A stretch of DNA of 64,000 nucleotides. It comes from a bacterium. Its GTDB lineage: Bacteria; 4484-113; JAFGCY01. The notes under the pieces were generated by a model, which saw nothing but the letters and a program-made list of their open reading frames with translations, was not told the origin of the DNA and made no database searches. A program made the position numbers and the translations under genes. The stretch spans positions 589,686 through 653,685 of the forward strand of contig JAWLAZ010000002.1 in NCBI GenBank assembly GCA_041395205.1. Direction: 5' to 3'. Numbering within the stretch: position 1 is the first letter of the stretch; every line of letters starts with the position of its first letter. Positions 15,201-51,720 of the stretch are shown here, in pieces.

Positions 15201-18012
15201 CGCGATCCTCACCGCGGCCGGCAACAAGAATGAGAACCCCGAATGGGCCCTGCGCAAGATCTCGGAGCTGAACCTCGTGCCCCGGGACGTGGCGGGGCTG
15301 GTGCGCCTCGGCGACCTGGCCGTGGAGAATGGCAACCTCGAGGAGGGCATCACCATCGCCGGGCACCTGCTGGATGGCAACGCCCCGCTGGAGGCCCGTG
15401 AACTGGCCACGAAGCTCGTGGACAGCAATGCCAGCTCACCAGAGGCGATGATCGCGCTCGTGCGCTCGCTGCTGGTGCCGCCGGTGCGCGACCTCAAGCA
15501 GGCCACGAGCCGCCTGATGAAGCTGCGCCAGCTCTTCCAGCAGAAGGAGATCCACGCCAACGAGGCCCTGCGCCCGCTGCGCCAGTACGCCCAGGAACAG
15601 CTCGCCGACTGCAGCGACCAGGCGGACTGCATGCGCTTCAACCTGGCCCTGGCCGCGATCAGCGGCGACCAGGAGCGCGCCACCTCGCTCGTGCGCGAGA
15701 TCAATTCCAACGGTGACGAGAACAGTCCCGAGCTGCTGGAGCTGTTTGACCAGCTGGCGCTCGTGGACACCGACCTCCCCAGCGCGATCGAGGTCAGCTG
15801 GGGCCGCGCCCTGTTCAATGCAGGACGCATCGACGAATCGCTGGACCGCCTCGCCGGTCTGCGTGATGCCGTCGGCGAATATCCCGAATACATCCAGCTG
15901 CTGGAGGAGATCAAGGAGAAGGCCGCCGGGCCGGGCGCCAGCATGCAGCTGGGCGAGGCCTACCTGCGCGTGCACCTCTGGCAGCGCAGCGCTGAGGAGT
16001 ACGCGGCGGCCCTCGACAAGGACCCGAGCCTCGCCGAGCCTATCCTCACGCAGCTCAGACACCACCATGCGCTGGTGCCCAACCCGATGAAGTATCCCCT
16101 GCACCTGCTCGCGCTGAAGGCCGTGGCCCACAGCGAGCGGGTCAGCGACTGGGGCTGGGCCGTGAGCGCCCTGAACTGGCTCGTGCCGCGCTGGAGCGCC
16201 GAGGAACTCTACGAGCTGGCCAAGGACCTCTACCGCAACTACCCGAACGTGGAGATCGAGGAGGATGACCTCCCGCAGCTGCTGCTGCATCTCTACCGCC
16301 TGGCCAACAAGGTCGGAAGCCGCGCGGATGCGATCAACTACTTCAATGAGGCCCGCAAGCTGGCGGGCGGCATGAATGAGGAGCTGATCGGTGCGCTGCG
16401 CGAGCTGGACCTGAACGACCTGCCCGAGGATGAGGACCTGCTCTTCAAGATCCGCATGTTCCAGCTGGAAAGCGCGATGGTCGAGAAGGATGAGGACCGC
16501 GTCGTGGAATGCGCGGGCCTGCTGGCCCAGACCGGGGCCGAGGGCCGCGAACAGGCGGTCAGCATCCTCGGTGAATACCAGCAGCAGGCCGGTGACAGCC
16601 TGCCCGTGATCGTGGCCCGCCTGAAGCTGATCGACCTCAGCCATGCCGAGGGCCGCAACCTGTTCGTCAATGAACTGCTCAGTGCCCTGCAGGGCAACCT
16701 GCCCAAGCAGCAGGTGCGCTCGCTGATCAGCATCGTGCTCGATCTCGTGCAGGCCACCCCGGACAGCCCCGAGCTGATCGAGCTGCTGCTGCAGCTCTTC
16801 GGCAAGCTGGGCGACCAGTCCCGCGCCTGGCAGCTTTCGCTGCTCTACGTGGAGGGTGAGGAAGCCCCGGCTCCAACTGCGCTGAGCGTGATCTCCGACC
16901 TCGCTGCCGACCGCTACGCCATCGGCCAGCAGCTGGCCCGCGTGGAGATCCTGATGCTGCGCGGCGACCATGAGGCGGCAGTCGAGGCCCTGGAGGCCGT
17001 GGACGGCAGCGCACTCGGCGATCGCAGCCCCCTGGCCGTGAACCTCGCGGAGGCCCTGCTCAGCAGTCCCTCCCAGGCCCGCGCCCGCGCCTGGCTGATC
17101 GGCTGGTACCGCGCCAACGGGCGGATGGACCTCGCCGGCGACCACCTCGTGTGGGCCTATGCCACCGCTGATCCGCAGCCGCATGACTGGCTCGTGGCCG
17201 AGAAGAGCGGCGACCTCAAGTACCGCTATGCCATGCTGCTGGAGCGCATGGGCCGCCGGGATGAAGCCTTCGGGGTCTTCCAGGAAGCGCTCAGTGCCGG
17301 GCCGCAGGACAAGCTGGTGCTGGCTGCGCTCAACATCCGGCTCGCCGGGATCTATGAGGAGCAGAACCAGCTGGACCAGGCGCTGGAATTCGCCACGGCA
17401 TCCGCCGAGCTGCAGCCCGAACGGGCCAGCCTGCAGGCGCATGTCGAGAAGCTGGTGCGCGACATCAACCGCCAGCGCATCGAGGAAACCCGCAACGAAC
17501 CCGACAGCGTGCAGCGTACGCTGCGCATCGCTGAACTGGCACTCAACAACAATGAGGTCGAGGAAGCGATCAACGAGCTGCAGGCCGGCATCGGCCGCGG
17601 CCAGGTCGCGCCCGAGGTCTACCTGGTGCTGGCGGAGTGCTTCAACCTCTCCGGCGACTACAACATCGCGCGCCGGGCCTTCGCGGAACTGCTGCGCAAT
17701 GACAAGCTGGACGATGCCGACCCCGAGCTGCGCCTGCGTACGCTCTACGGACTGGCCCAGGTCGAGGAAAGCCTCAGCAACCGCGAGGAAGCGATCCGCA
17801 ACCTGGAGCAGATCCTCGTGCTGCGCCAGAACTTCCGGGACAGCCGCCAGCGTCTGGATGCCCTGTACAACCAGACCGGCGCCGCCCCGCGCGAGAGCCA
17901 GCCAGCTCCCGCGGCAACTCCGGCTCCGGCCGCCTCCTCGGACAAGTCGAGCATGATCAACGAGCTGGATGAAATCCTCTCGATGCTCGGTGACGACGAC
18001 GAGGACTCATGA
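12220..18012 (+). CDS. giant (1930-aa) all-helical acidic protein with C-terminal TPR-like repeats; unknown function
   Basis: Single uninterrupted ORF. It has a poly-acidic block (DDEEPDFATEDVKYDDEEDEPAWETAAEDDAAVEAEDDFSLDDLPDDEDELDE), helical-repeat content throughout, TPR-like repeats near the C-terminus, and an acidic DDDEDS tail. The start lies 21 nt after the pseudokinase stop. Confidence 0.7.
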   Translation: MLKRFDFGKSLNRQVEAYKRLNPQQQQKRRPALLKSLEEYARRYLEEVINPNSANPGQLKSGAENLVEAAAVLDETRVAFETFSDMVARSRKVPVVPGLAGLVDRMLELESDSREHRLSLLNWRITTGNMRPERHLSYLSERASLTNEVSHWKDFAWGLSQMINKGTVKQGDDLAVRSLETLIENRQSLGDKAVEVTLMMAEAQILRKNDRQAEDLLVEIISEGRSVGEDFYQLANSLLDHRPQCCWELHQIVMEHSIKDYRSGRIGWNVLSERLERTHQHPLEIANYLTVHKEMVRDEKLAVYCLKRIVKLDSELIKDKIGNWFRAFQHAKQQPPSAANEYLQIAAGKVANIDFPELPEYVIPDSRPTPDASVNGAGPAPGADASLELDQEGIIDIQVEEPAPVYDDEEPDFATEDVKYDDEEDEPAWETAAEDDAAVEAEDDFSLDDLPDDEDELDEPAAAVQPPAQEPQHVTAVVSADFDLERLIESLADCERPNQVGAVLEKHINADKQSVNELHAISHNINSSGLAPWLVEESHLWFAEQLFLQDDSSAAAMELRSIRVPDEEHASRLRQRVERMFGSLDGAPAIAAHVARLALRTGDYESALARATMLPEGEEDRQNLLKSIEQWINAQADIPPDMLFALANAQRMQSEDPLAGFEAATAASLLDLNNGNIQQGYSIWVESINPRDVHMQRARQASYLTTEKGHSELLPIALDEIDALDNYLDEEISREPIQWLDNLRPLLDDLDENDPARNRMRWTRIYLNLTQRIGNIEQFEQVLQHAASLIAPEATMDLINEYGEKLPAGVRFTVRYRSLVHAGKWQEAISLFDSPEEFIINDSMTIEQICSELPDEALLPATEKLLGAFRSRNDSGARLGLIKSMSDRYESGGLGLDSNPPLKGLLDETLMDLCREEFEPALRYRLQTNRDMGDLENVARDLLALARGHDEKALAELEETFYLMVKAPEQSTTVIEIAEVLATAYSKQSPDAAIAILTAAGNKNENPEWALRKISELNLVPRDVAGLVRLGDLAVENGNLEEGITIAGHLLDGNAPLEARELATKLVDSNASSPEAMIALVRSLLVPPVRDLKQATSRLMKLRQLFQQKEIHANEALRPLRQYAQEQLADCSDQADCMRFNLALAAISGDQERATSLVREINSNGDENSPELLELFDQLALVDTDLPSAIEVSWGRALFNAGRIDESLDRLAGLRDAVGEYPEYIQLLEEIKEKAAGPGASMQLGEAYLRVHLWQRSAEEYAAALDKDPSLAEPILTQLRHHHALVPNPMKYPLHLLALKAVAHSERVSDWGWAVSALNWLVPRWSAEELYELAKDLYRNYPNVEIEEDDLPQLLLHLYRLANKVGSRADAINYFNEARKLAGGMNEELIGALRELDLNDLPEDEDLLFKIRMFQLESAMVEKDEDRVVECAGLLAQTGAEGREQAVSILGEYQQQAGDSLPVIVARLKLIDLSHAEGRNLFVNELLSALQGNLPKQQVRSLISIVLDLVQATPDSPELIELLLQLFGKLGDQSRAWQLSLLYVEGEEAPAPTALSVISDLAADRYAIGQQLARVEILMLRGDHEAAVEALEAVDGSALGDRSPLAVNLAEALLSSPSQARARAWLIGWYRANGRMDLAGDHLVWAYATADPQPHDWLVAEKSGDLKYRYAMLLERMGRRDEAFGVFQEALSAGPQDKLVLAALNIRLAGIYEEQNQLDQALEFATASAELQPERASLQAHVEKLVRDINRQRIEETRNEPDSVQRTLRIAELALNNNEVEEAINELQAGIGRGQVAPEVYLVLAECFNLSGDYNIARRAFAELLRNDKLDDADPELRLRTLYGLAQVEESLSNREEAIRNLEQILVLRQNFRDSRQRLDALYNQTGAAPRESQPAPAATPAPAASSDKSSMINELDEILSMLGDDDEDS

Positions 18013-19534: not shown

Positions 19535-21169
19535 GTGCGCATTTCATCTGTGAACATCGCCACGCTGCTGCTCGCCGCAATCCTGCTGGGCGCCTGCGCT
19601 GGCAATCCGGGCCTGCAGTCCGCAGCGCAGGACGGCAATGCTGAACTCGGCTATGCCAACTGGCAGCCGCAGCAGTCGATGGACCCCGTGCAGTCGCTGG
19701 ACGGCGCACTGCGCAGCAGTGCCGGCCTGCAGGCCGGTGGCTTCAGGCTCACGGCACTCGACAGCGGCAACTATCCGGACAGCCAGGTGCAGTCCGCCCT
19801 GCGCATGCAGCGCAGCGGAGACACCCTGCAGATCAGCAGCAATGTGCCGCTGGCGAGCGCCATGCTCTATCTGCAGAGCAGCACGGGCAGCGAGCACGTG
19901 CAGCAGGTCAGCTTCGGCGATCCCGCCGGCGTTGCCATCAGTGCTGAGCTGGACAACGGTGTGCAGGCCATCGGCCTGACCGGCCGCAACGGGGCCCTGC
20001 TCCCGGCCGGCAGCGTGCTTGCGAGCGTGGAGCTGGCTCCCGGAGCCGCTGCAGCCAGCCGCAGCGTGAAGGCCATTGACGCCGTCAACAACCGCGTGGG
20101 CCTGGTGGATCAGCAGAAGCTGATCGCCCAGGACAACGGCGAGGCGCTGGCCACCCTCACCTGGCGTGAGCGCTGCACCGGTGACTACGACATCAACGGT
20201 GTCGTGACCATCGCCGACATCACGCCGCTGGGCATCAACCTCAACAAGAGCTATGACAAGGAAGACCCTGACGCCTCCCCCAAGGTCGAGGTGGCGGACG
20301 GCGACTGGAACGGCCTGATCACGCTTGCGGACATCACGCCGATCGGCCAGAACATCGGCACGCAGATCGTCGGCTACGACGTCTACCGCACGACCCTCAG
20401 CGATGTCTCGGAGGATCCGACCCCGGATGTCAAGGACGCGCGCTGGTCGAAGATCGAGAATGCCAGCGATCCCGGCCTGCCGAGCGCCCCGCGCTCCGGT
20501 GCCCCGGTTACGGGTTCGCGCCTGACCTACACCTTCCTTGACAACACGATTCCCGACAGCGGCGGCAGCTATGCCTGGGCCGTGCTGCCGATCGCCGCGC
20601 AGGACCAGACACCGCGCGAGGGCCCGGTCAGCAACATCGCCAAGAGCGGCGTGAGCGCCAAGGGTGCGCCGGTGGACATCGTGATCCAGGATCCGGCCGG
20701 CAGCAGCCTGACGCTTGGCGACGAATTCTGGGTGGCGGTGCGCATCAGCGACGTGATCGGCCTGTTCAGCGCCAACATGCGCCTTGAGTACGACTCCAGC
20801 CTGCTGGAGGTCGTGGAGGTGGACACGGCGGACCAGATCCTGCCGGACTACGTGGACGGCGCCTTCAGCGGTGTGAACCTGCTGGTCGACCCGCTGTTCA
20901 TCGGGATTGACAACGTCGCTCCGGCTGACAGCCCCTACGTGCTGCTGGGCTTCAATGACACCCAGAAGCAGGGCACGCCGGTCGTGGACGGCAGTGGCAA
21001 CGTGGGCTACATCAAGTTCCGCGCCATCGCCGAGGGCAGCAATGCCGAGGCGGTGCGCTGGCCGCAGAGCTCGACCTTCATCCTGATGTGGGGTGAGGAA
21101 TTCGGCGTGCCGGCGGTGAACCCGATCCTCGGCCCGCCGCTGGATATCACGGTCGGCCCGGCGAGCTAG
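19535..21169 (+). CDS. secreted lipoprotein with two dockerin-like Ca-binding repeats and a C-terminal cohesin-like domain
   Basis: Probable GTG start at 19535 with a GGAAGGAG RBS; the upstream ATG at 19478 adds an implausible leader. Signal and lipobox LLGACAG. Dockerin-like loops are DYDINGVVTIADITPLG and DGDWNGLITLADITPIG. The C-terminus GAPVDIVIQDPAGSSLTLGDEFWVAVRISDV...LEYDSSLLEVVEV resembles cohesin modules. Confidence 0.65.
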   Translation: MRISSVNIATLLLAAILLGACAGNPGLQSAAQDGNAELGYANWQPQQSMDPVQSLDGALRSSAGLQAGGFRLTALDSGNYPDSQVQSALRMQRSGDTLQISSNVPLASAMLYLQSSTGSEHVQQVSFGDPAGVAISAELDNGVQAIGLTGRNGALLPAGSVLASVELAPGAAAASRSVKAIDAVNNRVGLVDQQKLIAQDNGEALATLTWRERCTGDYDINGVVTIADITPLGINLNKSYDKEDPDASPKVEVADGDWNGLITLADITPIGQNIGTQIVGYDVYRTTLSDVSEDPTPDVKDARWSKIENASDPGLPSAPRSGAPVTGSRLTYTFLDNTIPDSGGSYAWAVLPIAAQDQTPREGPVSNIAKSGVSAKGAPVDIVIQDPAGSSLTLGDEFWVAVRISDVIGLFSANMRLEYDSSLLEVVEVDTADQILPDYVDGAFSGVNLLVDPLFIGIDNVAPADSPYVLLGFNDTQKQGTPVVDGSGNVGYIKFRAIAEGSNAEAVRWPQSSTFILMWGEEFGVPAVNPILGPPLDITVGPAS

Positions 21170-22320
21170 GGCGGGAGGCCCGATGTAAGTCGAGGCGAGA
21201 GAGCTCCGGCTTCAGCCGGAGTGGAGGCCCGATGTAAGTCGGGCGACACGATTGCACGGAGGAGGCTACGGCCCTCCTCTTTTTGATGGCTGCGCTGAGC
21301 GCGCTGCGCGCGAGCAGCGTAGTGTGCATGAGCGGTTTTCTCGCAGAGGCGCAGGCAGAGTTCGGTCCAGCCTATGGAATGCAAGTATTCTTTCTCGCCG
21401 GCAGCGCCGGTATGCTGGTTGCTGCAATGATTTCGAGTCCCTGCGTACTGGTCTCTGAACAATCCCGCTGCATCCCTATGCCCACTGCCAATTTGACAAT
21501 GTACCGGCGCGGCCGCGGTGGGAAAAGCGCCCCGGTTTGCGTTAGCGGAACATGGAACCAGATTTTTCGGAGCCTGCCTCGTGTTTGATTGCACGGAGGA
21601 GGGCTACGGCCCTCCTCTATTTTGGGATGGCTGGCGCTGAGCCGCGCTGCGCGCGAGCAGCGTAGTGCTCGCATGAGCGGTTTTCCTGGCGCAGAGGCGC
21701 AGAGGCGCAGAGTTTTCTGGTCCAGCCTATTTGGAATGGCAGATCGATTCGCAGCATTCCCTTTCAAGCGCTGCGGGGCAGCGCCGGTACTGCTGGTTGC
21801 TGCAATGATTTCTGACTATAGTCCTCTGCGTACTCTGCGGCTCTCTGCGTTGAACAATCCCGCTGCATCCCTATGCTCCAGCATTGCCAATTTGGATAAT
21901 GTACCGGCGCGGCCCCGCCGCGATTGGGAGAAAGCGCCCCGAAGTTTGCGTTGCCAGCGGAACATGGAACCAAATTGATTTTCTCTGTGAGCTCTGTGCC
22001 TCTGTGTTTGATCAGCACATCTGCATCCCTGCCTTGTTGCCGTTCGAGCTTAGCGAGCCGCGCTGCGCGCGAGAAGGGCATTGCTCGCATGGAAAGCAAA
22101 TCAAACACAGAGTCTCAGAGGGCACAGAGTTTTCTGGTCCAGCCAAATTGGAATTGCAGATCGCTTCGCAGCATTCCCTTTCAAGCGCTGCGGGGCAGCG
22201 CCGGTACAGCTGCCTGTTGTCCATGGTTTCTGACTATAGTCCTCTGCGTACTCTGCGCCTCTGCGTTGAACAATCCCGCTGCATCCCTGCCTGGCAGCCG
22301 CCTGTTCCCTTCCCTATAAT
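21170..22320. repeat. REPIN-like composite repeat region (divergent copies of the CACAGAG / GGCAATGCGCACTTCGCGGC / CGCCGGTAC family)
   Basis: Internal ~330-bp direct duplications (21252-21580 vs 21589-21960, and 21700-21900 vs 22120-22320). Contains CTCTGCG heptad runs, the TTGAACAATCCCGCTGCATCCCT motif, and the ACCGGCGCGGCCCCGCCGCGATTGGGAG REP core. Confidence 0.7.
21258..21285 (+). terminator. rho-independent terminator (hairpin plus T5) embedded in a repeated module
   Basis: GGAGGAGG-ctacggc-CCTCCTC followed by TTTTT. The same module recurs at ~21589-21620. Confidence 0.55.
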
Positions 22321-26989: not shown

Positions 26990-27895
26990 GGCAATGATTC
27001 TAGCGGGAGGAAGGAGGTCTGGCGCAAGCCAGGCGCGGAGCTGCGACGCCAGTCGCGGAATCTGGAGCAGGGAGTTGAAAACAGAAAGCAGGCTCGCCTG
27101 CGCTCGGGTGGCAACGAGACATGAATGAAGCGGTTCTGAAGATTAACCACAGAGATACAGAGATCACAGAGGAAATCCGGGGGATTCGATTACCCGTTGG
27201 CAATGCGCACTTCGCTGCATTCTTTCCCAGGCGTCGCGGGGCGCTGCCGGTACATGATCCGAATTGGCAATGAACGAAAATACATGAATACAGGAATTCT
27301 TTAACGCTATGGCGCGAAGCCGCGAAGGAAGATATGAGATGAGTTTCCCCATTTGAAGTCTGTACCGGCGTCGCCCTGCGACGCTAGAGAGGGATTGTCA
27401 CGAAGCAATCTGCAATTCCAGTTTTGCGGATTCAGAAACCTCTGTGCGCTCTGTGGCTCTGTGTTTGACATTTCTTCCATACTCGCTGCGCTCGGCTGGC
27501 AACGTGGCGGGGATGCAGCGGGTTTATTCAAACACAGAGGCGCAGAGATCACAGAGAAATTCAATTGGGGTCGGTGTTCCGTTGGCAATGCTTACTTCGC
27601 GGCGTGCTCTCCCAGGTGTCGCGGGGCGCGGCCGGTACACTTCTTCACGGTTCACGGTTCACGGTTCACTCTTCACGGTTCACGCTTCACGGTTCACGCT
27701 TCACCCCTGACACCCATTGCCGAGCTGGCGCTCGACCTCCAGATTGTGCGACATCAAGTGTCGCACCTCCCCGCTCGACCTCCAGATTGTGCGACAGCAA
27801 GTGTCGCACCTCCCCGCCAGACCTCCGACACACCGCTCAACAAAAAAGGGAGCGCCGCGGCGCTCCCTCAAGGTGGTTCGATGATCTGAACGGGC
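26990..27895. repeat. REPIN-like composite element (type-1 units in both orientations, then a (TTCACGG)n microsatellite and type-2 REP hairpins)
   Basis: AACCACAGAGATACAGAGATCACAGAG...GTTGGCAATGCGCACTTCGC...GCGTCGCGGGGCGCTGCCGGTAC at 27131-27253. An inverted copy starts TGTACCGGCGTCGCCCTGCGACGC at 27361. Tandem ttcacgg at 27641-27700. A 47-bp unit duplicated at 27721-27830 contains CCGAGCTGGCGCTCGACCTCC. Confidence 0.75.
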
Positions 27896-31029: not shown

Positions 31030-32160
31030 CTACACAAAAATTACCATAATGCGAATATTTGTCAAGGAATAGCAATGTTAATGCAGATTGAAGGCAGGAG
31101 GCAAAAGGCAGAAGGCAGTGGTCAGGAGCGCCGGAGGATGCCGGGGGAAACGAGGCAGGGAAGATGCGGTTTTGAAGATAAACCACAGAGATACAGAGAG
31201 CGCAGAGGAATCCTGAAAGAAACTATTGCCAATACCAGCAGGACCGGCGTCGCCCTGCGACGCTTGAAAGTAAATGCTGCGAAGTAATCTGCAATTCGAA
31301 TTTCCAGATTCAGAAAACTCTGTGGGCTCTGAGTCTCTATGTTTGACACTTCTTCCTGGCTCGCTGCGCCCGGGTGGCAACGAGGCGGGGATGCAGCGGT
31401 TATGAAGACTAACCACAGAGATACAGAGAGCGCAGAGGAATCCAATTGCGATCGGTGATCCGTTGGCAATGCGTACTTCGCGGCAGCTTCTCCCAATCGC
31501 GGCCGGGCCGCGCCGGTACATTTTCTGTTTGGCAATGCAAGGTCATCATGTAAACGATGTCCTGGCACTAAATCATGTAAACGATGTCCTGGCACTCATC
31601 ACTAAGGCGCTAAGCCGCTAAGGAAGAGAAGTGAAGTTCATCCCCACATGCAGCTGTACCGGCGCGGCCCCGCCGCGCTTGAAAGTGAATGCTGCGAAGT
31701 ATTCTGCAATTCGAGTATTGCAGATTCAGAAGACTCTGTGGGCTCTGTGGCTCTGTGTTTGACAATTCTTCCAGGCTCGCATGCGCTCGATTGGCAACGA
31801 GGCAGGGATGCAGCGGTTCTGAAGATAAACCACAGAGATGCAGAGAGCGCAGAGAAATTCAGTTGGGATCGATTACCCGTTGGCAATGCGCACTTCGCGG
31901 CATGCTCTCCCAGGCGTAGTGACGGAGTGTAGCTCTTAGAGCCACAGGGCCTTGTTGGTCTCAGACCAACACTCCGCCGAGCTGGCGCTCGACCTCCAAT
32001 GGCACAGCTGCGCGGCATGCCCTCCCAGGCGTAGTGACGGAGTGTAGCTCTTAGAGCTACATGGCCTTGTTGGTCTCAGACCAACACTCCGCCGAGCTCG
32101 CGCTCGACCTCCAATGGCACAGCTTCGCGTCGCAGCACATCCACGGTATACTCAATGACG
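31030..32160. repeat. REPIN-like composite repeat region (type-1 units in alternating orientation plus type-2 REP hairpins)
   Basis: Type-1 units in both orientations across 31100-31930, with a 26-bp direct repeat at 31545-31596. Two ~120-bp units at 31920-32150 each end in CCGAGCTGGCGCTCGACCTCC. Region 31393-31918 is duplicated at 35599-36118. Confidence 0.8.
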
Positions 32161-35553: not shown

Positions 35554-35554
35554 G

Positions 35555-36620
35555 GATGTGGCTCGCCTTTTGCTCTGATGGCAACGAGGAAGGATGAGGC
35601 GGTTATGAAGACTAACCACAGAGATACAGAGAGCGCAGAGGAATCCAATTGCGATCGGTGATCCGTTGGCAATGCGTACTTCGCGGCAGCTTCTCCCAAT
35701 CGCGGCCGGGCCGCGCCGGTACATTTTCTGTTTGGCAATGCAAGGTCATCATGTAAACGATGTCCTGGCACTAAATCATGTAAACGATGTCCTGGCACTC
35801 ATCACTAAGGCGCTAAGCCGCTAAGGAAGAGAAGTGAAGTTCATCCCCACATGCAGCTGTACCGGCGTCGCCCTGCGACGCTTGAAAGTGAATGCTGCGA
35901 AGTTGCTAGATTCCCACCTTGGCCAGGCCCAGAAAACTCTGTGGGCTCTGTGGCTCTGTGTTTGACAATTCTTCCAGGCTCGCATGCGCTCGATTGGCAA
36001 CGAGGCAGGGATGCAGCGGTTCTGAAGATAAACCACAGAGATGCAGAGAGCGCAGAGAAATTCAGTTGGGATCGATTACCCGTTGGCAATGCGTACTTCG
36101 CGGCATGCTCTCCCAGGCGTCGCGGGGCGCCGCCGGTACTCACTTCCGATGGGATATTTCTTCCTGCATTCCTTCGCGACTTCGCGCCTTGGCGTTGAAG
36201 AAATCCATACCGCATTGCCTCGTTGTCATTCGAGTCAGGCTGTGGCGTGACGAGGCGCGCAACCGCGCGAGCAGTAACATGCTCGCCTGCAGGGTTTTAT
36301 TGGCGCAGAGGCGCAGAGAATGAAGATGCGCAGAGAAATGCGATGTCACTGGGCTCATTGCTCAATCGTCATTGCTCATTGCTTCGCGGCATGCTCTCTC
36401 AGGCGTCGCGGGGCGCCGACGCTACACGTCTTCACGGTTCACGCTTCACTCTTCACGGTTCACCCTTCACTTCCGGTCCGGCTTGCGCTGGTCAACCACG
36501 CCGAGCTCGCGCTAGACAGGCATGTTGTGCGACCTGCGCCGCACCTCCCCGCCTGATCTCCGGCAGCAATGAACTAATCCATCTCCCCACGGGTACTAAT
36601 CCGCATTGAATTGACTTGCC
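35555..36620. repeat. REPIN-like composite repeat region, near-identical duplicate of 31393-31918 plus a (TTCACGG)-like microsatellite
   Basis: 35599-35872 matches 31393-31665 almost base for base, and 35925-36118 matches 31700-31918. A 26-bp direct repeat lies at 35748-35799. A ttcacgg-type tandem lies at 36421-36475. Confidence 0.8.
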
Positions 36621-36960
36621 GCCTCAGCCGAGGCTTCGGCGGTCTGAATCCTCTTGCCATCTCACCCGAGGGCTCGATGGTCTGCAGGATTTCGCGAAAC
36701 CGGTTCCGCTCAACCTGCGTGGGTCATCCATAGCAAACGGGTCACGCTGAAGTTGCAGGTGGTTGGAAGATGCATCGCGCAGGCAGCGAGAAGCTTTGCT
36801 TGGAGCTGTACTGCAGACCGACGAACGCTTGCGTGAGTCGGCAGAAGAATTCAGACCACTGAGCGCTTGCATCGCGCAAGAGGAGCGGAACTCGTTTCGC
36901 TCCGGTTTGCAGACCATCGAGTCTTTGGACGAGATGGCAAAGCAATTGACGCCGGGCTGC
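36600..36960. repeat. type-3 repeat copy (GGTCTGCA[A/G]TACAGCTC[A/C]AAGCAAAGCTTCTCGCTG family, inverted orientation)
   Basis: CAGCGAGAAGCTTTGCTTGGAGCTGTACTGCAGACCG at 36779-36820 is the reverse complement of the units at 43525 and 43690. A related GCGCTTGCATCGCGCAAGAGGAGCGG segment follows. Confidence 0.55.
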
Positions 36961-38188: not shown

Positions 38189-38456
38189 GCAGGAACACAA
38201 AGCTCATGCGCCAGGATGGAAAAAGGCCCCGGGGCCTGAGCACGGCTCTGTGAGGAGCCGGGGAAGAATCCCGGGGACAACCGGTTCATTATACCGGGAG
38301 CAACCTTCCCTGGCTGCTGAGCACGACGTCCATTGAATACTCAGGCCGCCGGTTTTGCACGGAATTCGCCAATAATCGAAATCAGCTCGCCTTAGTACTT
38401 CCGGCTCTTGTCAGACACGACTATAATCAGGTATGGTAATATCTGCTACCGCGTAA

Positions 38457-40149: not shown

Positions 40150-40380
<231 letters not shown>

Positions 40381-42714: not shown

Positions 42715-43200
42715 GAGCTACCCGCTTAAGCGGGGAGGCAACGGGGGTCGGGTTTCGGGTTTCGGTGATCGGCAGATAGGCTCGCATGCGCTCGGGTTGG
42801 CAACGGGGACGACTCGGGCGGAGCGGAAGATTATCCATCAGAGCGATTCCTGGGCTGGCTGAGCACGCAATGGAATATGGCGGGCGTGAACGCCCTTCCA
42901 CCGCTAGCAGGGCGTTTACGCCCCGGAAATGAGAGTGGCATCTGCATTTCCAACACGACCCCCGGAATCAGCAGAAGGACCGGCGCCGCCCCGCGGCGAT
43001 TGGGAGATGGCGCAGCAAGCTGCTAGTGTCCATCCAATACGAGGAAGCACCGGCGCTGGGACAGTCTATTCCTGCGAACTGACCGTTCGCAGTCCGGCGG
43101 GCTGAATGCCCGCGCTCCGCGCCGAGCTGGCGCTCGACCTCCCCGCCTGGCTTGCGCCAGACCTCCGTGGGCGGGAAATAATCCGCTGCTGTTTTCCGAA
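42715..43200. repeat. REP hairpin cluster (type-1 and type-2 units)
   Basis: GACCGGCGCCGCCCCGCGGCGATTGGGAG at 42981, and CCGAGCTGGCGCTCGACCTCCCCGCCTGGCTTGCGCCAGACCTCC at 43120-43170. Confidence 0.6.
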
Positions 43201-43277
43201 CAACGGGGGCAGTGCAGCGTCTGGATTATTACCAGTTCGACGATACAGGTTTTCACGACACAGCAACTCCTGACCTG

Positions 43278-43313
43278 GTGAACCCCGCGACGCATCGGGG
43301 TTCACTTTTTTTC
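43278..43313 (+). terminator. strong orphan rho-independent terminator (10-bp stem, T7)
   Basis: GTGAACCCCG-cgacgcat-CGGGGTTCAC followed by TTTTTTT. No protein-coding gene lies upstream on this strand for >500 nt. Confidence 0.6.
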
Positions 43314-43464
43314 TTAGCCCGGAAAGTGTTCCCCCCAAAAAGACCAGAAACAGTTCCCCTATTTCTTAGAACAAATCCGCAGCGGGGGTGGTCTCTCTAA
43401 TTACCAGTTCACATTGGCAGTCTTCAGAAACCGCAAGGGAGTTCTGATTTGACAGCGATGTAAG

Positions 43465-43498
43465 AGGCGCCGATTCAGCCCGGCGCCTTTTCCTTTTC
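43465..43498 (+). terminator. second orphan rho-independent terminator
   Basis: AGGCGCCG-attcagc-CCGGCGCC followed by TTTTCCTTTT. Confidence 0.5.
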
Positions 43499-43499
43499 T

Positions 43500-43900
43500 A
43501 GTTGCCCGCTCATGCAAGCATTCGCGGGTCTGCAATGCAGCTCAAAGCAAAGCTTCTCGCTGATTGCCCCTGCAGGAGATGTTTCGTTTGGGAGATGTAA
43601 CTTCAGCGCGACCCGGACGGCTTTGCCGGCCGCAGCGCCAGACCAGATTCTGTTTCCATCTCGTGCAATCCCGCCTTTGGCGGGACTCGATGGTCTGCAA
43701 TACAGCTCAAAGCAAAGCTTCTCGCTGATTGCGCGATGCGTCTTCAGGTGCTCAATTGCCAGACTGACATCTGGCCTCCTGTAACTTCAGCGCGACCCGG
43801 ACGGCTTTGCCGGCCGCAGCGCCAGACCAGTGAACCTTCAGGTGAACTGGAAACAAAATGCGATGGACCGCGGCAGGCAGCCCATCGCAACACACACACA
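43500..43900. repeat. type-3 repeat pair (two ~165-bp direct units)
   Basis: GGTCTGCAATGCAGCTCAAAGCAAAGCTTCTCGCTGATTGC at 43525 and again at 43690. GTAACTTCAGCGCGACCCGGACGGCTTTGCCGGCCGCAGCGCCAGACCAG at 43600 and again at 43780. TTGCCCGCTCATGCAAGCATTCGCGGGTCTG at 43503 recurs inverted at 60140. Confidence 0.7.
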
Positions 43901-43934
43901 CTGCGCCGGAGGATCTACCTCCGGCTGTTGTCAT

Positions 43935-44960
43935 CTAGATGTCGTCGTCAGCGAGGATCTCATCCTCGTCCTCGAAGTCCTCATCATCCACGTCCGGCAC
44001 CGGCACGCCGAGATCCGCTTCCGCCTCTGAGCGCTGGCCATTGGCCCTGAGGTCGATCCCGTCACGGCGCTTCCACTCGATCAGGAAGGCCGCCACGTTC
44101 TGGCTCAGATGGATGCTCACCCCGCGCGGGTTGTCATCCCAGTCGCTGCTCTCCGCCACACCGTCGCGCAGCTCCATCCCGTACTTCTCCAGGTTGAGCT
44201 TGGAGAGGCTGCCCGTGGCCTCGAGCCGCAGGGCGTAGTCCTCGGGGATGTGCAGCGTGATGCTGCCGGCGTTGTTGCGCACGTCCATCTCCACGCGGTC
44301 CTCGCGCCTGCCGAGCAGCAGCACCATGTTGCCGGCCTGGTTGTCAATCTCCAGGTCCTTCACATCGAGTTCGCTCAGATCGAAGTGCGCATCCGCCGCC
44401 GCATTGTGCAGGCTGGCGACGTAGGCCACGTCCGGATTGAGCTTCAGGCCGCTGCGCCCGATGCTGTGCTTGAGCGTGACATCGGCCTTGCCGCCCTTCA
44501 CGTCGCTGAGGATCACCGGCTCCGTGGGGGTGTTCTTGACCTTGCCCTGGATCAGCGGGCTGCCGCTTTCACCGCCCTTGACCTTGACGCGCCCGGCGCG
44601 GATGTCGAGCGTGAGGTTGCAGCGCTTGATGCCATCCGGGATCTCGACCTTGACGGGGAAGTCCCTGAGCTCCGTGTAGCGTGCGGCCTTGCTGCGCTTG
44701 TACTGGCGCTGGGTGCGGCGGAAGGTGTCAACGAGCGAGTTCTGGAACTCCACCGCGACCTCGCCGAGATTCTCCAGGTTGATCTTCGGCAGCTTGATGT
44801 TCGGCACATCGAAGCGCGTGCCGGCACTGCCGGCGGCTCCGCTGCGGCTGCTTTCGCGGCTTTCCGAATCCTGCAGGGCGTTGATCAGCTTCAGCCCCTC
44901 CTCGGGGGTCAGCCGGCCTTCCTGCACCATTTCCAGGATCTTGATCTTCTCTCTGCTCAT
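43935..44960 (-). CDS. DUF4097-like (putative adhesin / LiaG-like beta-helix) protein with an N-terminal SHOCT-like helix
   Basis: Start at MSREKIKILEMVQEGRLTPEEGLKLINAL (the internal M of ORF 43935-45014). Repetitive beta-strand segments are typical of DUF4097. Acidic C-terminal tail. Confidence 0.5.
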   Translation of the reverse strand: MSREKIKILEMVQEGRLTPEEGLKLINALQDSESRESSRSGAAGSAGTRFDVPNIKLPKINLENLGEVAVEFQNSLVDTFRRTQRQYKRSKAARYTELRDFPVKVEIPDGIKRCNLTLDIRAGRVKVKGGESGSPLIQGKVKNTPTEPVILSDVKGGKADVTLKHSIGRSGLKLNPDVAYVASLHNAAADAHFDLSELDVKDLEIDNQAGNMVLLLGRREDRVEMDVRNNAGSITLHIPEDYALRLEATGSLSKLNLEKYGMELRDGVAESSDWDDNPRGVSIHLSQNVAAFLIEWKRRDGIDLRANGQRSEAEADLGVPVPDVDDEDFEDEDEILADDDI

Positions 44961-44979
44961 GTTGTCCTCTCCAATTGAT

Positions 44980-45213
44980 CTATGCCGCGGCAGCCAGCCT
45001 GTCGACCGGAACACTGCGCTTCATCCACAGCAGGCAGGAGCCCCGCTGGGTGTCACCCAGCATCCGTGAGACGCTCTGCAGTTCCGCTGCCTCCAGCGGC
45101 TGCCAGCCCTGCCTGCGCAGGGTACTGATCAATTCACCCAGTTGTCCCAGCTCCACGTCCGAGACATCACGAAACATGTATTCCACACTGAACCGCATCG
45201 TTTCCCTTCCCAC
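44980..45213 (-). CDS. small hypothetical protein between the DUF2089 and DUF4097 genes
   Basis: 77-aa ORF located between the two genes; no motif recognised. Confidence 0.3.
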   Translation of the reverse strand: MGRETMRFSVEYMFRDVSDVELGQLGELISTLRRQGWQPLEAAELQSVSRMLGDTQRGSCLLWMKRSVPVDRLAAAA

Positions 45214-45225
45214 TGACGCCCGGCG

Positions 45226-45645
45226 TCAGTCCCTGAGGCGGCTCTCGGCCTCCTCGACCGTAAGCTCACCCCGCTCCAGGGCCGCGAGGATCTCCTCACG
45301 GCTTTCATGATCATCTTCATCTGCAGCGGCGGCCGCCGCCTCACCGGCGTAGGCCCCGCCATCCATCCCGAGGCTGGCCAGAAGCTGGTCAAGCCGGCCG
45401 CGGACCGTCGGATAGCTGATGTTCAGCACCGACTCAACCTCCTTCAGGTTGCCGCGGCAGGACAGGAAGGTCCGCAGGAACTCCAGCTTGTCCTGGGGCA
45501 GGCGGGCGAACTCATTGGCCATGAATACGCCGTTGAGCTCGGTGTCGCACTCATTGCAACGCAGGTGCGTGACGCTGAGCTGCCCGCTGCACACGGGACA
45601 TTCGGAAATCAGCCTGTTGGCCTTCTTGTTGTTTCTGAACATCAC
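45226..45645 (-). CDS. DUF2089-family protein (zinc ribbon plus HTH, SHOCT-like C-terminus)
   Basis: CPVCSGQL...CNECDTEL zinc ribbon, an HTH-like LKEVESVLNISYPTVRGRLDQL segment, and a C-terminal ILAALERGELTVEEAESRL. Confidence 0.55.
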   Translation of the reverse strand: MMFRNNKKANRLISECPVCSGQLSVTHLRCNECDTELNGVFMANEFARLPQDKLEFLRTFLSCRGNLKEVESVLNISYPTVRGRLDQLLASLGMDGGAYAGEAAAAAADEDDHESREEILAALERGELTVEEAESRLRD

Positions 45646-46110
45646 ATCAGCATAGTAACAAGCATTTTCAACTATGTCAAGATCATTTTTGAAAATATTG
45701 AGGTTGATCTTTCGAATTAGCTTCAGGTAAGTAAGAAATGCGCAGTTTTTCTGAGATTGGACTTCAGATGTGGAAAGGAGGAAGAGGAAGATATGGGAGG
45801 GAGAGGAGAGAGAAGATCAACCACAGGGAGCACGGAGAACACGGAATCAGAAGCAGAATGAGAATCAGCAGAGGGGACGGCGGCAATTGGGAGGGGCTCT
45901 TGCGGAGTGCCACTTTCATTTCCCGGGCGTAAACGCCCTGCTACTGGTGGAAGGGTGTGGCAGTTGCATATTCCTTCAGGAGGTAACTTAATGGAGAAGG
46001 ACCGGCGCCGCCCTGCGGCGATTGGGAGGGGCTCTTGCAACCCCTTTGGAACCATCAAAACAAAGAAGGACCGGCGCCGCCTGGCGGCGATTGGTAGATG
46101 GCGTTACGAT

Positions 46111-46599
46111 TCAAGCTCCACCAGTCCGCCGAAGTTCATCCAGATGCGGATTGTAGAGAATGTACTGGCGAATGCGGTTCAGGGATACTTCGCTGTTCAC
46201 GATCTTCTCGTGGAATCCGTTCTGCCAGATTGCCAGTCCAGGATTTCCCGTTGTCAGGCGCGCTTCCTTCGTCACGGCCCCCTTGAATGAATTGATCACG
46301 GTTCCCAGCTTGGGTGGCCGTTCAGCATCAGCACCGTGGTGCTCTAGAAGCAGCAGGGCATGCAAGTGATTCGGCATGATTCTGTAAAGGTCATTGCTGA
46401 CATTGCTGTAAACCTGATTGTTGCGTTGCCAGATTTCATCGGCAATCCTGCCAAGCATGCTCAGTTCCACGGTGTTCTGCTGTCCGATCCTGCCGAAGAG
46501 ATTCCTGTTGCCAGCAGTGCAGATGGTGACGAAGTAGTAGCCGGGGGTGGAGTAATCATATCCGGCAAGACGATTGGAGTTTCTTTTGGGAACCAACAT
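46111..46599 (-). CDS. REP-associated tyrosine transposase (RAYT, IS200/IS605-like Y1 HUH), copy 1
   Basis: From MLVPKRNSNR. HUH motif IMPNHLHALL, catalytic-Tyr motif IRQYILYNP, and YYFVTICTAG near the N-terminus. The longer ORF to 46806 reads through the adjacent REP array and is rejected. Confidence 0.7.
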   Translation of the reverse strand: MLVPKRNSNRLAGYDYSTPGYYFVTICTAGNRNLFGRIGQQNTVELSMLGRIADEIWQRNNQVYSNVSNDLYRIMPNHLHALLLLEHHGADAERPPKLGTVINSFKGAVTKEARLTTGNPGLAIWQNGFHEKIVNSEVSLNRIRQYILYNPHLDELRRTGGA

Positions 46600-47010
46600 A
46601 TGGCAATAATAGGGCAATTTGTGGCACTCCGCAACTATGCCTCCCAATCGCCGCGGGGCGGCGCCGGTCCTTTGCTCGTCTCGATGGATCCTGCATCTCT
46701 TTGCTGCGCCATCTCCCAGTCGCCGCGGGGCGGCGCCGGTCCTGCCTCGTGTTGGATGGACTCTAACCGGTGGCTGCATTACCTCCCAATTGCCGCGGGG
46801 CGGCACCGGTCCTGCCTCGTGTTGGATGGACTCTAGCCGGTTGCTGCATTACCTCCCAATCGCCGCGGGGCGGCGCCGGTCCTGCCTCGTGTTGGATGGA
46901 CTCTAGCCGGTTGCTGCATTGCCTACCAATCGCCGCGGGGCGGCGCCGGTCCTTCCTCGTGTTGGATGGACTCTAACCGGTGGCTGCATTACCTCCCAAT
47001 TGCCGCGGGG
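46600..47010. repeat. tandem array of five ~76-bp REP units adjacent to RAYT copy 1
   Basis: Unit CCTCCCAATCGCCGCGGGGCGGCGCCGGTCCTGCCTCGTGTTGGATGGACTCTAGCCGGTTGCTGCATTA repeated 5 times with few substitutions. The core CGCCGC-GGG-GCGGCG is a hairpin. Inverted copies occur at 42981, 45995 and 46065. Confidence 0.8.
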
Positions 47011-47027
47011 CGGCACCGCTACCCTCC

Positions 47028-47110
47028 CTGACCACTGACTTCTGACCATTGACCACTGACTTCTGACCACGGACCACTGACCACTGACCACTGACCACTG
47101 ACCACTGATT
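47028..47110. repeat. (CTGACCA)n heptamer tandem array
   Basis: About 11 tandem heptamers of the CTGACCA/CTGACTT type, between the REP array and the divergently transcribed 47176 gene. Confidence 0.7.
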
Positions 47111-49415: not shown

Positions 49416-50756
49416 ATGAAGCGTGGACTGGCTGGGATCGGACTGAGCGTGCTGGCGCTGTTGCTGACTGCGCTGCATGCCGCATCCTGTGGCGGAGCAT
49501 CCGCCGCCGGTTCAGTGGATTCCGCTCCCGTTATCCAGGCCGCAGCGGCTCCGGCCTTCCCGCTGGATGACCCGCATTTCTCGCGCCAGGTGAAGGCGCT
49601 GGAAACCCTGGACGGCACGCAGACCTACTCCGACTGCGGAGCTCCGGGCTTCGCCGTGCATGACACGATCGCCACGGTGGGCGTGCTCGCCAGCAGCGAG
49701 GCCCAGCCCAGCGCCTGGGCGGTCTACCGCTTCCCGCTGAACAACCCCACCGACCTTGAATCGATCAAGGTCACCCTCCACCAGGGCAAGCTGGACGATT
49801 ACTACTACGTGATGCTGGCTGACTACACCAGCAAGCGCTGGCAGCTCGTCGGGCAGAAGCTGTCCACCTCCCAGGTGCTGCCGGCGGACTGGCAGGGCCT
49901 CGACATCACCAGCCCGGCCAAGTTCGTCTATATCGCTGTGATCGTGGTGGACGGGCGCGACATCAACATCGCCGGGCTGGAGTCCAGCATCACGCAGGGA
50001 AATGGAGGGGACTACCCGATCTACGACGACTTCGAGGACAACGACACGCTTGACACCTGCTATCCGATCGGCGTGGGCAGCTATGTTGCCAGCACGCATG
50101 ACGACTTCGTGCCCGAGATGCTGGAGATTGACGAGGCCCAGGACCACTGGGACTTCTACTGCATCGACCTGAATGCCGGTGAGCACTTCACCGCCACGCT
50201 GGAGTATGAGTACGTCAACCACTTCGACCAGCCCAACGGCACCTTCAACGATCTCGACATGCTGATGTACGCGCCGGGTGTGATGGACCTGCCATTGGAC
50301 AACTTCAATGAGCAGTGGAGCAGCATCCGCATCTACTTCACGAACATGGAGCTCGTGAGCTTCGTGGCCCCCGGCACTGGCACCTACCGCATCGGGATCC
50401 GAGGCGACCTGGGCGACCAGTTCTCGGCGGACAGCAATGCGGAGTACGTGCTGAAGACCTTCGTGAGTGCGGATACGCACAAGGTCAGCGGCTTCATCAC
50501 GCAGAATGAGCAGGAACCGGACAAGAAGTTCCTCGTGGTGCTGACGCCGGGCAACTTCAGCGGCGTGACCTCACTGGAGGCCGCACCCCACGGCGGCTAT
50601 GAAATCAACGGCGTGCCGGATGGGACCTACACCATGGAAGTGCGCGGCAGCGCGGCCTGGAACCAGCATGACTACACCTATCCGAATACCAAGCAGGTGG
50701 TGGTCAGCGGCGGCGACGTGAACATCAGCATGAGCATCGACCCCTTCCCGGGCTAG
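49416..50756 (+). CDS. lipoprotein with a PPC-like domain and C-terminal carboxypeptidase-regulatory-like domain
   Basis: Lipobox LHAASCGG. GTGTYRIGIRGDLGDQFSADSNAEYVLKTF resembles pre-peptidase C-terminal domains. The C-terminal KVSGFI...GVPDGTYTMEV resembles CarboxypepD_reg. Confidence 0.5.
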   Translation: MKRGLAGIGLSVLALLLTALHAASCGGASAAGSVDSAPVIQAAAAPAFPLDDPHFSRQVKALETLDGTQTYSDCGAPGFAVHDTIATVGVLASSEAQPSAWAVYRFPLNNPTDLESIKVTLHQGKLDDYYYVMLADYTSKRWQLVGQKLSTSQVLPADWQGLDITSPAKFVYIAVIVVDGRDINIAGLESSITQGNGGDYPIYDDFEDNDTLDTCYPIGVGSYVASTHDDFVPEMLEIDEAQDHWDFYCIDLNAGEHFTATLEYEYVNHFDQPNGTFNDLDMLMYAPGVMDLPLDNFNEQWSSIRIYFTNMELVSFVAPGTGTYRIGIRGDLGDQFSADSNAEYVLKTFVSADTHKVSGFITQNEQEPDKKFLVVLTPGNFSGVTSLEAAPHGGYEINGVPDGTYTMEVRGSAAWNQHDYTYPNTKQVVVSGGDVNISMSIDPFPG

Positions 50757-50850
50757 GAGGTCTGGCGCGAGCCAGGCGCGGAGGTCGAGCGCCAGCTCGG
50801 CGCGGAGGTCTGGCGCAAGCCAGGCGCGGGAGGTCCGGCGCAAGCCGGAA
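50757..50850. repeat. type-2 REP hairpins (inverted orientation) flanking RAYT copy 2
   Basis: GGAGGTCGAGCGCCAGCTCGG and GGAGGTCTGGCGCAAGCCAGGCG units, which are reverse complements of the units at 51601-51700. Confidence 0.7.
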
Positions 50851-51589: not shown

Positions 51590-51720
51590 GGGATACCATT
51601 GCCGAGCTGGCGCTCGACCTCCGACGCCTGGCTTGCGCCAGACCTCCGTTGTCCGGCTTGCGCCGGGATACCGCGCCGAGCTGGCGCTCGACCTCCATCG
51701 CCGAGCTGCCCCTCCCCCTC
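51590..51720. repeat. type-2 REP hairpins (forward orientation) on the other flank of RAYT copy 2
   Basis: CCGAGCTGGCGCTCGACCTCC occurs 3 times and CGCCTGGCTTGCGCCAGACCTCC once. Together with 50757-50850 these form inverted REP doublets around the RAYT gene. Confidence 0.7.

Follow-up and report, generated by a model that had tools for sequence, protein, structure and literature searches.

The intergenic region at positions 31030-32160 of a 64-kb stretch of bacterial DNA (contig JAWLAZ010000002.1; the whole stretch is hereafter called the window) is probably one of several clusters of repetitive extragenic palindromic (REP) sequences in a Sumerlaeota (UBP7) chromosome, in which arrays of one REP family, REP1, are tied to a REP-associated tyrosine transposase gene, RAYT1, and a second system, RAYT2 with its family REP2, is interleaved. 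An earlier note on this DNA, based on its letters alone, had described the region as one copy of a single large, composite palindromic element. Instead, the repeat combines modules of at least three families, namely REP1, REP2 (which has a RAYT of its own) and arms carrying a triplet of the heptad CACAGAG, in a mosaic organised like the head-head and tail-tail dimers of REPs or the clusters known as bacterial interspersed mosaic elements (BIMEs). Overall, the repeat system is of a known kind, combining REP dimers, BIME-like clusters and doublets resembling REPINs (REP doublets forming hairpins) with a cognate RAYT, but its form is unusually large and modular and its host phylum little studied. 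The closest sequences are metagenome-assembled genomes (MAGs) of UBP7/Sumerlaeota, in agreement with the earlier impression of a poorly characterised lineage.

Architecture of the arrays

A BLAST search of 31030-32160 against the window recovered copies at 21692-22292 (on the opposite strand), 27089-27642 and 35559-36139, plus copies within the region itself (31141-31917) and fragments in the stretch 42778-43007. Combined with the output of a repeat finder, these matches define five intergenic loci that share a self-complementary unit of about 285 nucleotides (nt; Table 1). The recurrence at five places, already remarked on in the earlier note, is reflected in the pattern counts: the heptad triplet has 15 matches in the window, 12 of them exact, against an expectation of 0.00, and the REP core has 21 against an expectation of 0.25. 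The element had been given a length of about 240-330 bp; the repeat is real, with a corrected full unit of ~285 nt and a start-to-start period within arrays of 415-417 nt (385 nt at 27145/27530).

An alignment of seven full units, spanning ~285 nt, reads REP1 (reverse), arm a, CTCTGTG three times, a centre, CACAGAG three times, arm A and REP1 (forward). The first module is a REP1 copy with its tag first (G(T/G)ACCGGCG..), followed by arm a (..GAATGCTGCGAAG..), a CTCTGTG heptad triplet that ends in GTTTGA, and a centre of 60-90 nt (GCTCGC.TGCGCTCG..GGCAACGAGGC.GGGATGCAGCGG); the right-hand half comprises the triplet AACCACAGAG-ATACAGAG-AGCGCAGAG, arm A (GTTGGCAATGCG.ACTTCGCGGC) and a second REP1 copy with its tag last (..CGCCGGTAC). 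All three parts recognised from the letters (the heptad triplet, the GTTGGCAATGCG.ACTTCGCGGC block and the terminal REP) are thus present, and they occur in both orientations. The two halves of the unit are complementary, with 71 pairs in the consensus hairpin of the seven aligned units, and 35854-36142 folded as DNA gives one long imperfect hairpin (-75.1 kcal/mol, z = -6.1), as had been proposed for head-to-head copies.

Such long and stable hairpins, in which some of the arm G-T pairs would become G-U pairs in RNA, could also point to genes for structured non-coding RNAs. We consider this very improbable: the units have no Rfam match at the gathering score, nor beyond chance level at E <= 10; an excess of promoters or terminators was not found; the better-folding strand is inconsistent among nine units; and compensatory changes support only 6 of the 71 long-range pairs of the whole unit, far fewer in proportion than in the small REP1 stem described below. 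A search for tRNA genes likewise returned none. Descent from a protein-coding insertion sequence, of which the elements would be decayed fragments, is effectively refuted. The open reading frames (ORFs) of 100-180 amino acids (aa) that overlap the arrays appear spurious, since ten array ORFs lack any Pfam hit at E <= 0.01, the two RAYTs used as queries in translated searches give nothing in the arrays beyond matches at E > 2, and conservation tracks the palindromic DNA modules rather than a reading frame. Such an origin would have refuted the original description.

The order of the modules along the arrays follows a simple rule. Neighbouring REP1 pairs in four arrays alternate in orientation in nine cases out of ten; pairs with their tags outward surround a conserved, self-complementary spacer of ~235 nt (arms a/A, triplets h/H, centre C), whereas pairs with their tags inward surround variable spacers of 54-136 nt, often heptamer microsatellites, which are unlike even between orthologous loci. 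Two classes of linker between REPs, one long and conserved and the other short and variable, therefore alternate and are reiterated in tandem, as in a BIME-type cluster. The window holds ~28 extragenic REP1 copies, and its heptad arms always lie within REP1 units, none standing alone. A 564-nt block is 94% identical between two loci 4.2 kb apart.

Several further details of the first description needed adjustment. Not all of 31030-32160 belongs to one family, because 31896-32129 is a separate 115-nt repeat, present twice and bearing REP2. The direct repeat at 31545-31596 and 35748-35799 is present, with a unit of 27 nt repeated 1.9 times rather than one of 26 bp, and the (TTCACGG)n microsatellites were found at 27643-27704 and 36419-36471. 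The arrays and related REP arrays sum to ~5.6 kb, or 8.8% of the window, close to the estimate of a tenth. The proposal that the elements fill most long intergenic regions holds for the five loci, though not throughout. The G+C content of the window is ~65% and that of the long intergenic regions is lower; among low-G+C stretches (0.48-0.54), 59900-61100 and 1-1500 contain no REP1 hit, and a search of 59900-61100 for internal repeats found none, so that the arrays do not fill every long gap.

The REP families and their transposase genes

REP1 consists of an unpaired 5' tag, G(T/G)A(C/G), followed by CG, a 7-bp stem (GCGNNGC) with a loop of 3 nt, and a short tail of conserved sequence (..TGGGAGA or TTGAAAG). 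To a set of 31 variants from the window and its relatives we applied a covariation score, which reached 0.33 for the stem compared with 0.08 in shuffles (0 of 500 attained the observed value) and at most 0.084 for slid partners. Both-sided changes occur at six of the seven pairs, and 84.8% of the cells are paired; the two central stem positions occur as TC/GA, CG/CG, CC/GG and CT/AG. The tag position is conserved and reads GTAC or GGAC in most copies, while seven of the 31 variants read GTAG: two from the MAG UBA01, four from the MAG UBA03 and, in the window, the copy at 36403. REP1 is a genuine REP, with a hairpin that has been under selection.

RAYT1 is predicted to be a Y1 HUH transposase of the TnpA-REP kind, that is, a domesticated transposase gene. 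Although the protein alone matches PF01797 only at E = 0.014, many of the 120 listed among its 211 homologues are named RayT, and the profile of this family matches the Escherichia coli TnpA-REP structure 4ER8 (E = 5.5e-5). RAYT2 scores higher on each profile (NF047646, 94.8 bits with a cut-off of 80; PF01797, E = 3.6e-10; 4ER8, E = 2.3e-8). Judged by the motif table of PMC6006769, the RAYT subclass fits 2.4, 2.6 and 2.7 alike.

REP1 copies lie on both sides of RAYT1 in inverted orientation, with their tags outward, and a translated search indicates that RAYT1 is single-copy within the window. The same REP1 flanks with the same polarity accompany the RAYT1 orthologue of the genome CP060262.1 (57% identical) and a homologue on a JGI contig (64% identical); a cyanobacterial homologue carries a different, GTAG-tagged REP. 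The terminal hairpin of the elements had been equated with the REP beside RAYT1, which is correct for the family but not for the tag: the copies beside the gene carry GGAC (..CCGGTCC), those of the arrays mostly GTAC. At its ends the 285-nt unit has the same polarity as RAYT1 together with its flanks, a palindromic spacer taking the place of the gene. Inverted pairs of REPs of one family that fold as one hairpin, together with a cognate RAYT that is flanked by its own REP and single-copy within the window, are the hallmarks of REPINs, and in these respects the REPIN-like organisation recognised in the earlier note is borne out.

The family of RAYT2, REP2, has a GGAGGTC tag, a stem of 4-5 bp with covarying variants and a four-base loop, and forms tandem units of 24-25 nt. 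It is interleaved in the REP1 arrays, where it is found in the duplicated 115-nt repeat at 31896-32129 and brackets the array at 26990-27895.

Turnover of the arrays among relatives

Two syntenic stretches, one from UBA03 (L186; JAGRNT01) and one from CP060262.1 (L187), were reached via a neighbouring protein. UBA03, whose genes are 83-97% identical to those of the window, has arrays at the same three intergenic sites. The tail-tail spacers of the two genomes are unrelated, and at the 35.7-kb locus the corresponding spacer of another relative, L089, is a different, heptamer-like sequence of 54 nt. A 286-nt right half between direct REP blocks occurs in the window but in neither L089 nor UBA03. 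In the more distant CP060262.1 (genes 73-95% identical), 67 nt stand where the window has the array 27017-27838 and ~6 nt where it has 35554-36570, while the site orthologous to 31030-32160 has another arrangement, with one REP1 pair around a single heptad arm. Similar arrays, with a GTAG tag, occur in UBA01 (L055). Against the empty sites of CP060262.1, no target duplication, which together with terminal inverted repeats marks a classical miniature inverted-repeat transposable element, is visible at the array boundaries.

Two observations bear on movement of the sequence. First, the paralogous right halves at 31772-31917 and 35975-36120 share 99% identity, compared with 85-88% for their positional orthologues in UBA03; this difference indicates that sequence has moved between loci since the window and UBA03 genomes split. 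Second, past window position 43006 the UBA03 sequence runs on as the reverse complement of 46672-46418, and the junction falls exactly at inverted REP1 copies; we read it from the alignment as a REP-bounded inversion or deletion. The segment between the inverted REP1 copies, 43007-46647, holds RAYT1 and a pair of DUF2089 genes, and is joined the other way in UBA03 (20751-21005). As judged from these comparisons, the arrays turn over by gaining, losing and exchanging units at REP boundaries. REP copies thus mark the breakpoints of insertions, deletions and rearrangements between close relatives, and so shape genome structure in this clade.

Two genes of UBA03 were seen beside these sites: an Abi_2-like gene (15551-16204) where the window has 33 nt (38301-38334), and an 801-aa ORF (2277-4682) in the intergenic array region orthologous to 26990-27895.

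These data suggest how the arrays may have arisen. Each REP hairpin, or the whole unit, would fold on single-stranded DNA; RAYT1 would recognise the hairpin and its tag, cut and rejoin the DNA there and seed new copies, a role that we infer from what is established for TnpA-REP and IS200/IS605 enzymes, a subject treated in PMC3479197 and PMC8266576. Homologous recombination between the many REP copies would then grow, shrink and homogenise the arrays, as the comparison with relatives suggests. The 285-nt unit, which shares its end polarity with the gene and its flanks, has the appearance expected of a non-autonomous derivative. The heptad arms could be a second element that was captured, or could serve as a linker to which a protein binds, comparable to the BIME linker that binds integration host factor (IHF).

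Several points weigh against this explanation. All of the differences between relatives could be produced by recombination, slippage or gene conversion, from which transposition is not separated by the comparison. The REP1 copies that flank RAYT1 (GGAC tag, CC/GG stem) are unlike most array copies (GTAC tag, TC/GA or GC/GA stems). The match of RAYT1 to NF047646 (52.4 bits, E = 5e-14) lies under the curated cut-off of 80, and as a single sequence the protein is also under the Pfam gathering score. Compared with described REPINs, the spacer is 2-7 times longer and its sequence is conserved, so that the Pseudomonas model (PMC3337134) is not matched on either count, and 31030-32160 lies between divergent genes rather than at gene 3' ends.

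The same comparisons could be taken to mean that the arrays are no longer mobile and persist as resident structural or regulatory DNA or RNA (for example protecting transcript 3' ends, binding nucleoid proteins or insulating divergent promoters), changing only by slippage, unequal crossing-over and gene conversion. The occupation of the same three intergenic sites in the window and UBA03 and the nature of the differences, which are repeat-bounded changes in unit number, agree with such a history, and both the 415-417-nt periodicity and the 94% identity of the 564-nt block fit conversion or duplication as well as transposition. We nevertheless regard it as unlikely, because three genomes have an intact RAYT gene bordered by this REP, two orthologous sites of CP060262.1 are without arrays, and the arrays (85-88% identical) evolve about as fast as the neighbouring genes (83-97%) or faster; they show no sign of extra constraint.

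A heptad hairpin found in many phyla

The heptad triplet had been presented as a part of the element itself. To place it in a wider context, one genome per species was scanned for CACAGAGNNRCAGAGNNCRCAGAG, with phyla read from contig titles. At least 120 matches were found, compared with a rough chance expectation of ~4 from the pattern length and collection size, and those listed come from Planctomycetota, Acidobacteriota, Chloroflexota, Verrucomicrobiota, cyanobacteria, Proteobacteria, Firmicutes, Chlamydiae, Bacteroidota and Methanothrix. Viral contigs gave at least 120 further matches to the motif, with up to 7 copies in 11 kb, and a variant pattern occurred in 65 metagenome stretches. Among these 65 stretches, the composite unit found no match beyond the heptad arms except in L089, plus a 45-nt match to the REP block in UBA01.

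The triplet is a hairpin arm in more than 300 of the loci fetched. Its consensus is TT(C/A)AC-CACAGAG-R-CACAGAG-RR-CACAGAG, and positions that lie outside the search pattern are conserved as well (A, 85%; C, 84%; C, 95%). An inverted partner lies within 250 nt for 56% of the instances, giving long and often perfect hairpins. The sites are intergenic, often 6-60 nt past a stop codon, and depleted in divergent regions (9 of 90). Hairpins of the form TTCACCACAGAG.CACAGAG..CACAGAG recur in loci L001-L185 and L195-L314 (for example L003 1474-1542, L117 1147-1232, L199 and L208/L215), and in some contigs there are seven or more copies with conserved loops.

Two candidate identities for this hairpin were rejected. 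It is not an intrinsic terminator: in L117 it lies downstream of a canonical terminator after a 5S rRNA gene and lacks a T tract. Nor is it the REP of a widespread RAYT, since no RAYT-like gene was found near the motifs in ~2.3 Mb of loci and the flanks of RAYT1 homologues bear REPs of their own, not heptads. Ten heptad-hairpin loci from elsewhere had no Rfam match at the gathering score and only chance-level ones at E <= 10. In the searchable literature, 15-17-mers of the heptad sequence gave no match, and no bacterial paper was among the 25 of 197 matches listed for 11-mers; the heptad hairpin family is apparently undescribed. The triplet is not specific to the element of the window but is a motif of many phyla, independent of RAYTs.

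Clustering of the ORFs that flank the heptad loci yielded no conserved neighbour beyond generic families and one small family, the GxxExxY proteins (TIGR04256, PF13366). Heptad triplets bracket or abut GxxExxY genes in 10 of 11 distinct loci, and they adjoin all four of the loci that were chosen by protein alone. In L048 (5128-5646), the GxxExxY gene is bracketed by CCACCACAGAGACACAGAGAACACAGAGGTCGCACAGAG on one side and CTCTGTGCAACCTTTGTGTTCTCTGTGTCTCTGTGGTGG on the other; in L318 (970-1410), the gene is bracketed by a variant heptad, CACGAAG, with the same TTCACCAC lead-in, so that two dialects, CACAGAG and CACGAAG, can be told apart. Further genes of the family lie between or beside inverted triplets in L131 (2977-3464), L115 (6910-7459) and L326 (1373-1470). 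All three non-redundant H...h pairs with 430-510 nt between their arms and a plausible inner ORF enclose a GxxExxY gene; a fourth pair, of 522 nt, holds only a low-complexity ORF that we took as spurious. The window and 42 kb of its two syntenic relatives contain no GxxExxY gene, and viral contigs gave pattern hits for such genes but no confirmed relative. A homologue search for PF13366 returned at least 8000 candidates, all at E <= 1e-10, and the family, which has a PD-(D/E)XK fold, has been described as of unknown function and as transferred multiple times between Archaea and Bacteria (PMC3424549).

The arrays may accordingly comprise two nested and independent elements, a family of heptad hairpins and the REP1 doublets, inserted into or captured by each other, with the heptad part recognised by a protein other than the RAYT. 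We hold this as a tentative possibility, one that complements the RAYT1 explanation rather than excluding it. The spread of the motif over genomes of many phyla including Methanothrix, metagenomes and viral contigs, its conservation outside the search pattern and the lack of RAYTs in the ~2.3 Mb of heptad loci all speak for it, as do the GxxExxY genes beside the triplets (10 of 11 loci, including all four chosen by protein) and inside the three plausible pairs of 430-510 nt, and the CP060262.1 REP1 pair with one heptad arm between its copies. The evidence on the other side comes largely from the window, where the arms occur only inside REP1 units and stand tail-to-tail around a conserved centre instead of an ORF, and which, like the 42 kb of relatives, is free of GxxExxY genes; the sample of 11 GxxExxY loci is also small.

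Taken further, with similar reserve, the heptad triplets could be a family of hairpin elements found throughout prokaryotes and in viral contigs, whose gene-bearing form is a GxxExxY cassette of ~0.5 kb, and the window arrays could be nested RAYT/REP and GxxExxY/heptad mobilisation systems. The arms would be TTCACCAC(AGAG or GAAG) followed by two more heptads, in inverted pairs, and the hairpins without an ORF would be miniature derivatives of the cassette or its binding and cleavage sites. Elements of the IS200/IS605 type carry a small nuclease or transposase gene between structured ends, have many ORF-less hairpin copies and leave no evident target duplication. The heptad elements resemble them in layout, but the enclosed gene encodes a GxxExxY protein with a PD-(D/E)XK fold, not a Y1 transposase, and is not known to have any activity. 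A 24-nt motif that is shared by many bacterial phyla, an archaeal genus and viral contigs is connected in this way with PF13366, a protein family that is very large and has no assigned function, and the link offers a testable substrate hypothesis for that family.

Relation to described repeat systems

Distinct REP subtypes, Y and Z, alternate in BIMEs, and in E. coli a nucleoid protein (IHF or gyrase, for instance) binds the BIME linker. The TC/GA and GC/GA stem variants of REP1 alternate in the way of the Y and Z types, and the linker of the unit holds heptad triplets in place of the IHF site. According to a survey of the GTAG superfamily of REPs (Di Nocera et al. 2013, PMC3733652), REP dimers have conserved spacers when head-head and variable ones when tail-tail, and clusters reiterate dimers together with flanking DNA. 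The window arrays share with these REPs and with E. coli BIMEs the hairpin with an unpaired tetranucleotide tag, the alternating orientation, the spacer rule, the reiteration of dimers and a RAYT flanked by the same REP. They differ in the tag (mostly GTAC or GGAC, with GTAG in the minority, versus GT[AG]G), in the spacer (~235 nt forming a long palindrome with heptad triplets, versus the usual 20-100 nt) and in the interleaving of two REP/RAYT systems in one array; in the consulted passages of the survey, the candidate phylum Sumerlaeota does not appear among the phyla mentioned.

The REPINs of Pseudomonas fluorescens SBW25 are likewise inverted REP pairs that form one hairpin, with a single-copy, REP-flanked RAYT and one REP family for each RAYT. 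They measure 89 bp, with distances of 34-110 bp between REPs and a spacer that keeps its pairing but not its sequence (Bertels and Rainey 2011; PMC3337134), whereas the unit described here has 285 nt, a modular spacer conserved in sequence and a mostly tandem arrangement, which sets it apart from compact REPINs of ~90-150 nt. Our results extend REP/RAYT biology to a candidate phylum. They also provide an extreme example, in which the unit measures 285 nt, its modular spacer is conserved, three REP subtypes occur and two systems are interleaved; this example is relevant to how RAYT genes and their flanks are related to REP doublets and to BIME-like clusters.

The heptads can also be set beside the heptamer repeats of cyanobacteria and Beggiatoaceae, the short tandemly repeated repetitive (STRR) sequences and the TAACTGA repeats (PMC4679880), which are similarly built of 7-nt units, intergenic and scattered over unrelated phyla, with no mechanism of spread known; the window, too, holds plain heptamer microsatellites. 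Unlike these repeats, the CACAGAG motif is a fixed triplet with spacers of 1-2 nt and a conserved TTCACCAC lead-in, usually forms inverted hairpin arms rather than an open-ended direct array, and is linked to GxxExxY genes. The heptad elements suggest one possible origin for the unexplained intergenic heptamer repeats of bacteria.

Additional features

The features of the window are compiled in Table 1.

Table 1. Repeat modules, arrays and RAYT genes, in window coordinates unless another genome is named.
Feature	Position	Strand	Details
Truncated right half (centre C and heptad triplet H), abuts next unit	31141-31213	+	88-89% identical to 31370-31443 and 31793-31858; heptad match at 31184
Full 285-nt unit U2	31236-31523	+	Seven-unit alignment and REP1 hits; 85.5% identical to 31651-31912
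U2: REP1, tag first	31241-31263		
U2: CTCTGTG-type triplet	31318-31341		
U2: CACAGAG triplet	31414-31437		
U2: arm A	31463-31485		
U2: REP1, tag last	31497-31519		
Variable tail-tail spacer between two REP1 copies	31524-31650	+	27-nt x1.9 tandem repeat at 31545-31596
Octamer triplet CTAAGGCG CTAAGCCG CTAAGGAA in tail-tail spacers	31602-31625; 35805-35828; CP060262.1 (L187) 9245-9268		
Unit U3, 3' REP1 replaced at 31917 by the 115-nt repeat	31651-31917	+	C-H-A part 99% identical to 35975-36120
115-nt x2 tandem repeat with small palindromes	31896-32129	+	Tandem Repeats Finder; REP2 copies at 31975-31997 and 32090-32112
Divergent array, two full units	21497-22265	-	~30-nt insertion in centre; 417-nt period; repeat finder, BLAST, unit alignment
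Array	27003-27826	+	REP2 (reverse) 27003-27030; right half 27089-27255; spacer; full unit 27357-27642; (TTCACGG)n 27643-27704; REP2-bearing 43-nt tandem 27719-27826
Array	35559-36471	+	Right half 35559-35723; spacer; full unit 35854-36142; extra GCGCAGAG-type right half 36143-36428; heptamer repeat 36419-36471
Partial copy	42778-43167	+	Centre fragment 42778-42808; REP1 42973-43006; REP2 43115-43167
Two REP1 copies, tag first, 3' side of RAYT1	45995-46097	+	
RAYT1, 162 aa	46114-46599	-	HUH motif NHLH; WQ; Tyr motif YILYNP
Six REP1 copies, 70-nt tandem array (x5.4), 5' side of RAYT1	46638-47024	-	Inverted relative to 45995-46097
(CTGACCA)n after the RAYT1 5'-side array	47028-47108		
REP2 tandem units, 24 nt, flanking RAYT2	50756-50846	-	
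RAYT2, 206 aa	50854-51474	-	NF047646, PF01797 and 4ER8 matches
REP2 tandem units, 25 nt, other RAYT2 flank	51596-51722	+	Inverted orientation

The octamer triplet of the tail-tail spacers is kept in the more distant relative CP060262.1 and, like the heptad triplet, is a triple short direct repeat. Three heptamer microsatellites of the window, the two (TTCACGG)n runs and (CTGACCA)n at 47028-47108, start right at the tag end of a REP1 copy. In UBA03 a GTGAACA-like run (13514-13568) lies between two REPs, and a GGAAGT-rich run precedes the REP triplet of another RAYT (L193, 2735-2785). The position of the heptamer runs at REP1 tag ends suggests repeat growth at the site of presumed RAYT action.

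Further microsatellites, (AGTGGGC)n, (CTGACCA)n and (CTGACTA)n at 40156-40241, 40328-40378 and 55184-55234, occupy short intergenic regions without REPs and resemble the STRR-type repeats of cyanobacteria. At 43935-45645, a SHOCT-like/DUF2089-C gene and a DUF2089 gene (zinc ribbon and helix-turn-helix) adjoin RAYT1 inside the REP-bounded segment. Finally, a separate inverted repeat family of 59-65 nt (36766-36843 versus 43503-43567 and 43687-43745; 83-88% complementary) sits upstream of a gene resembling that for inosine monophosphate dehydrogenase (IMPDH) and in the intergenic region at 43.5 kb.

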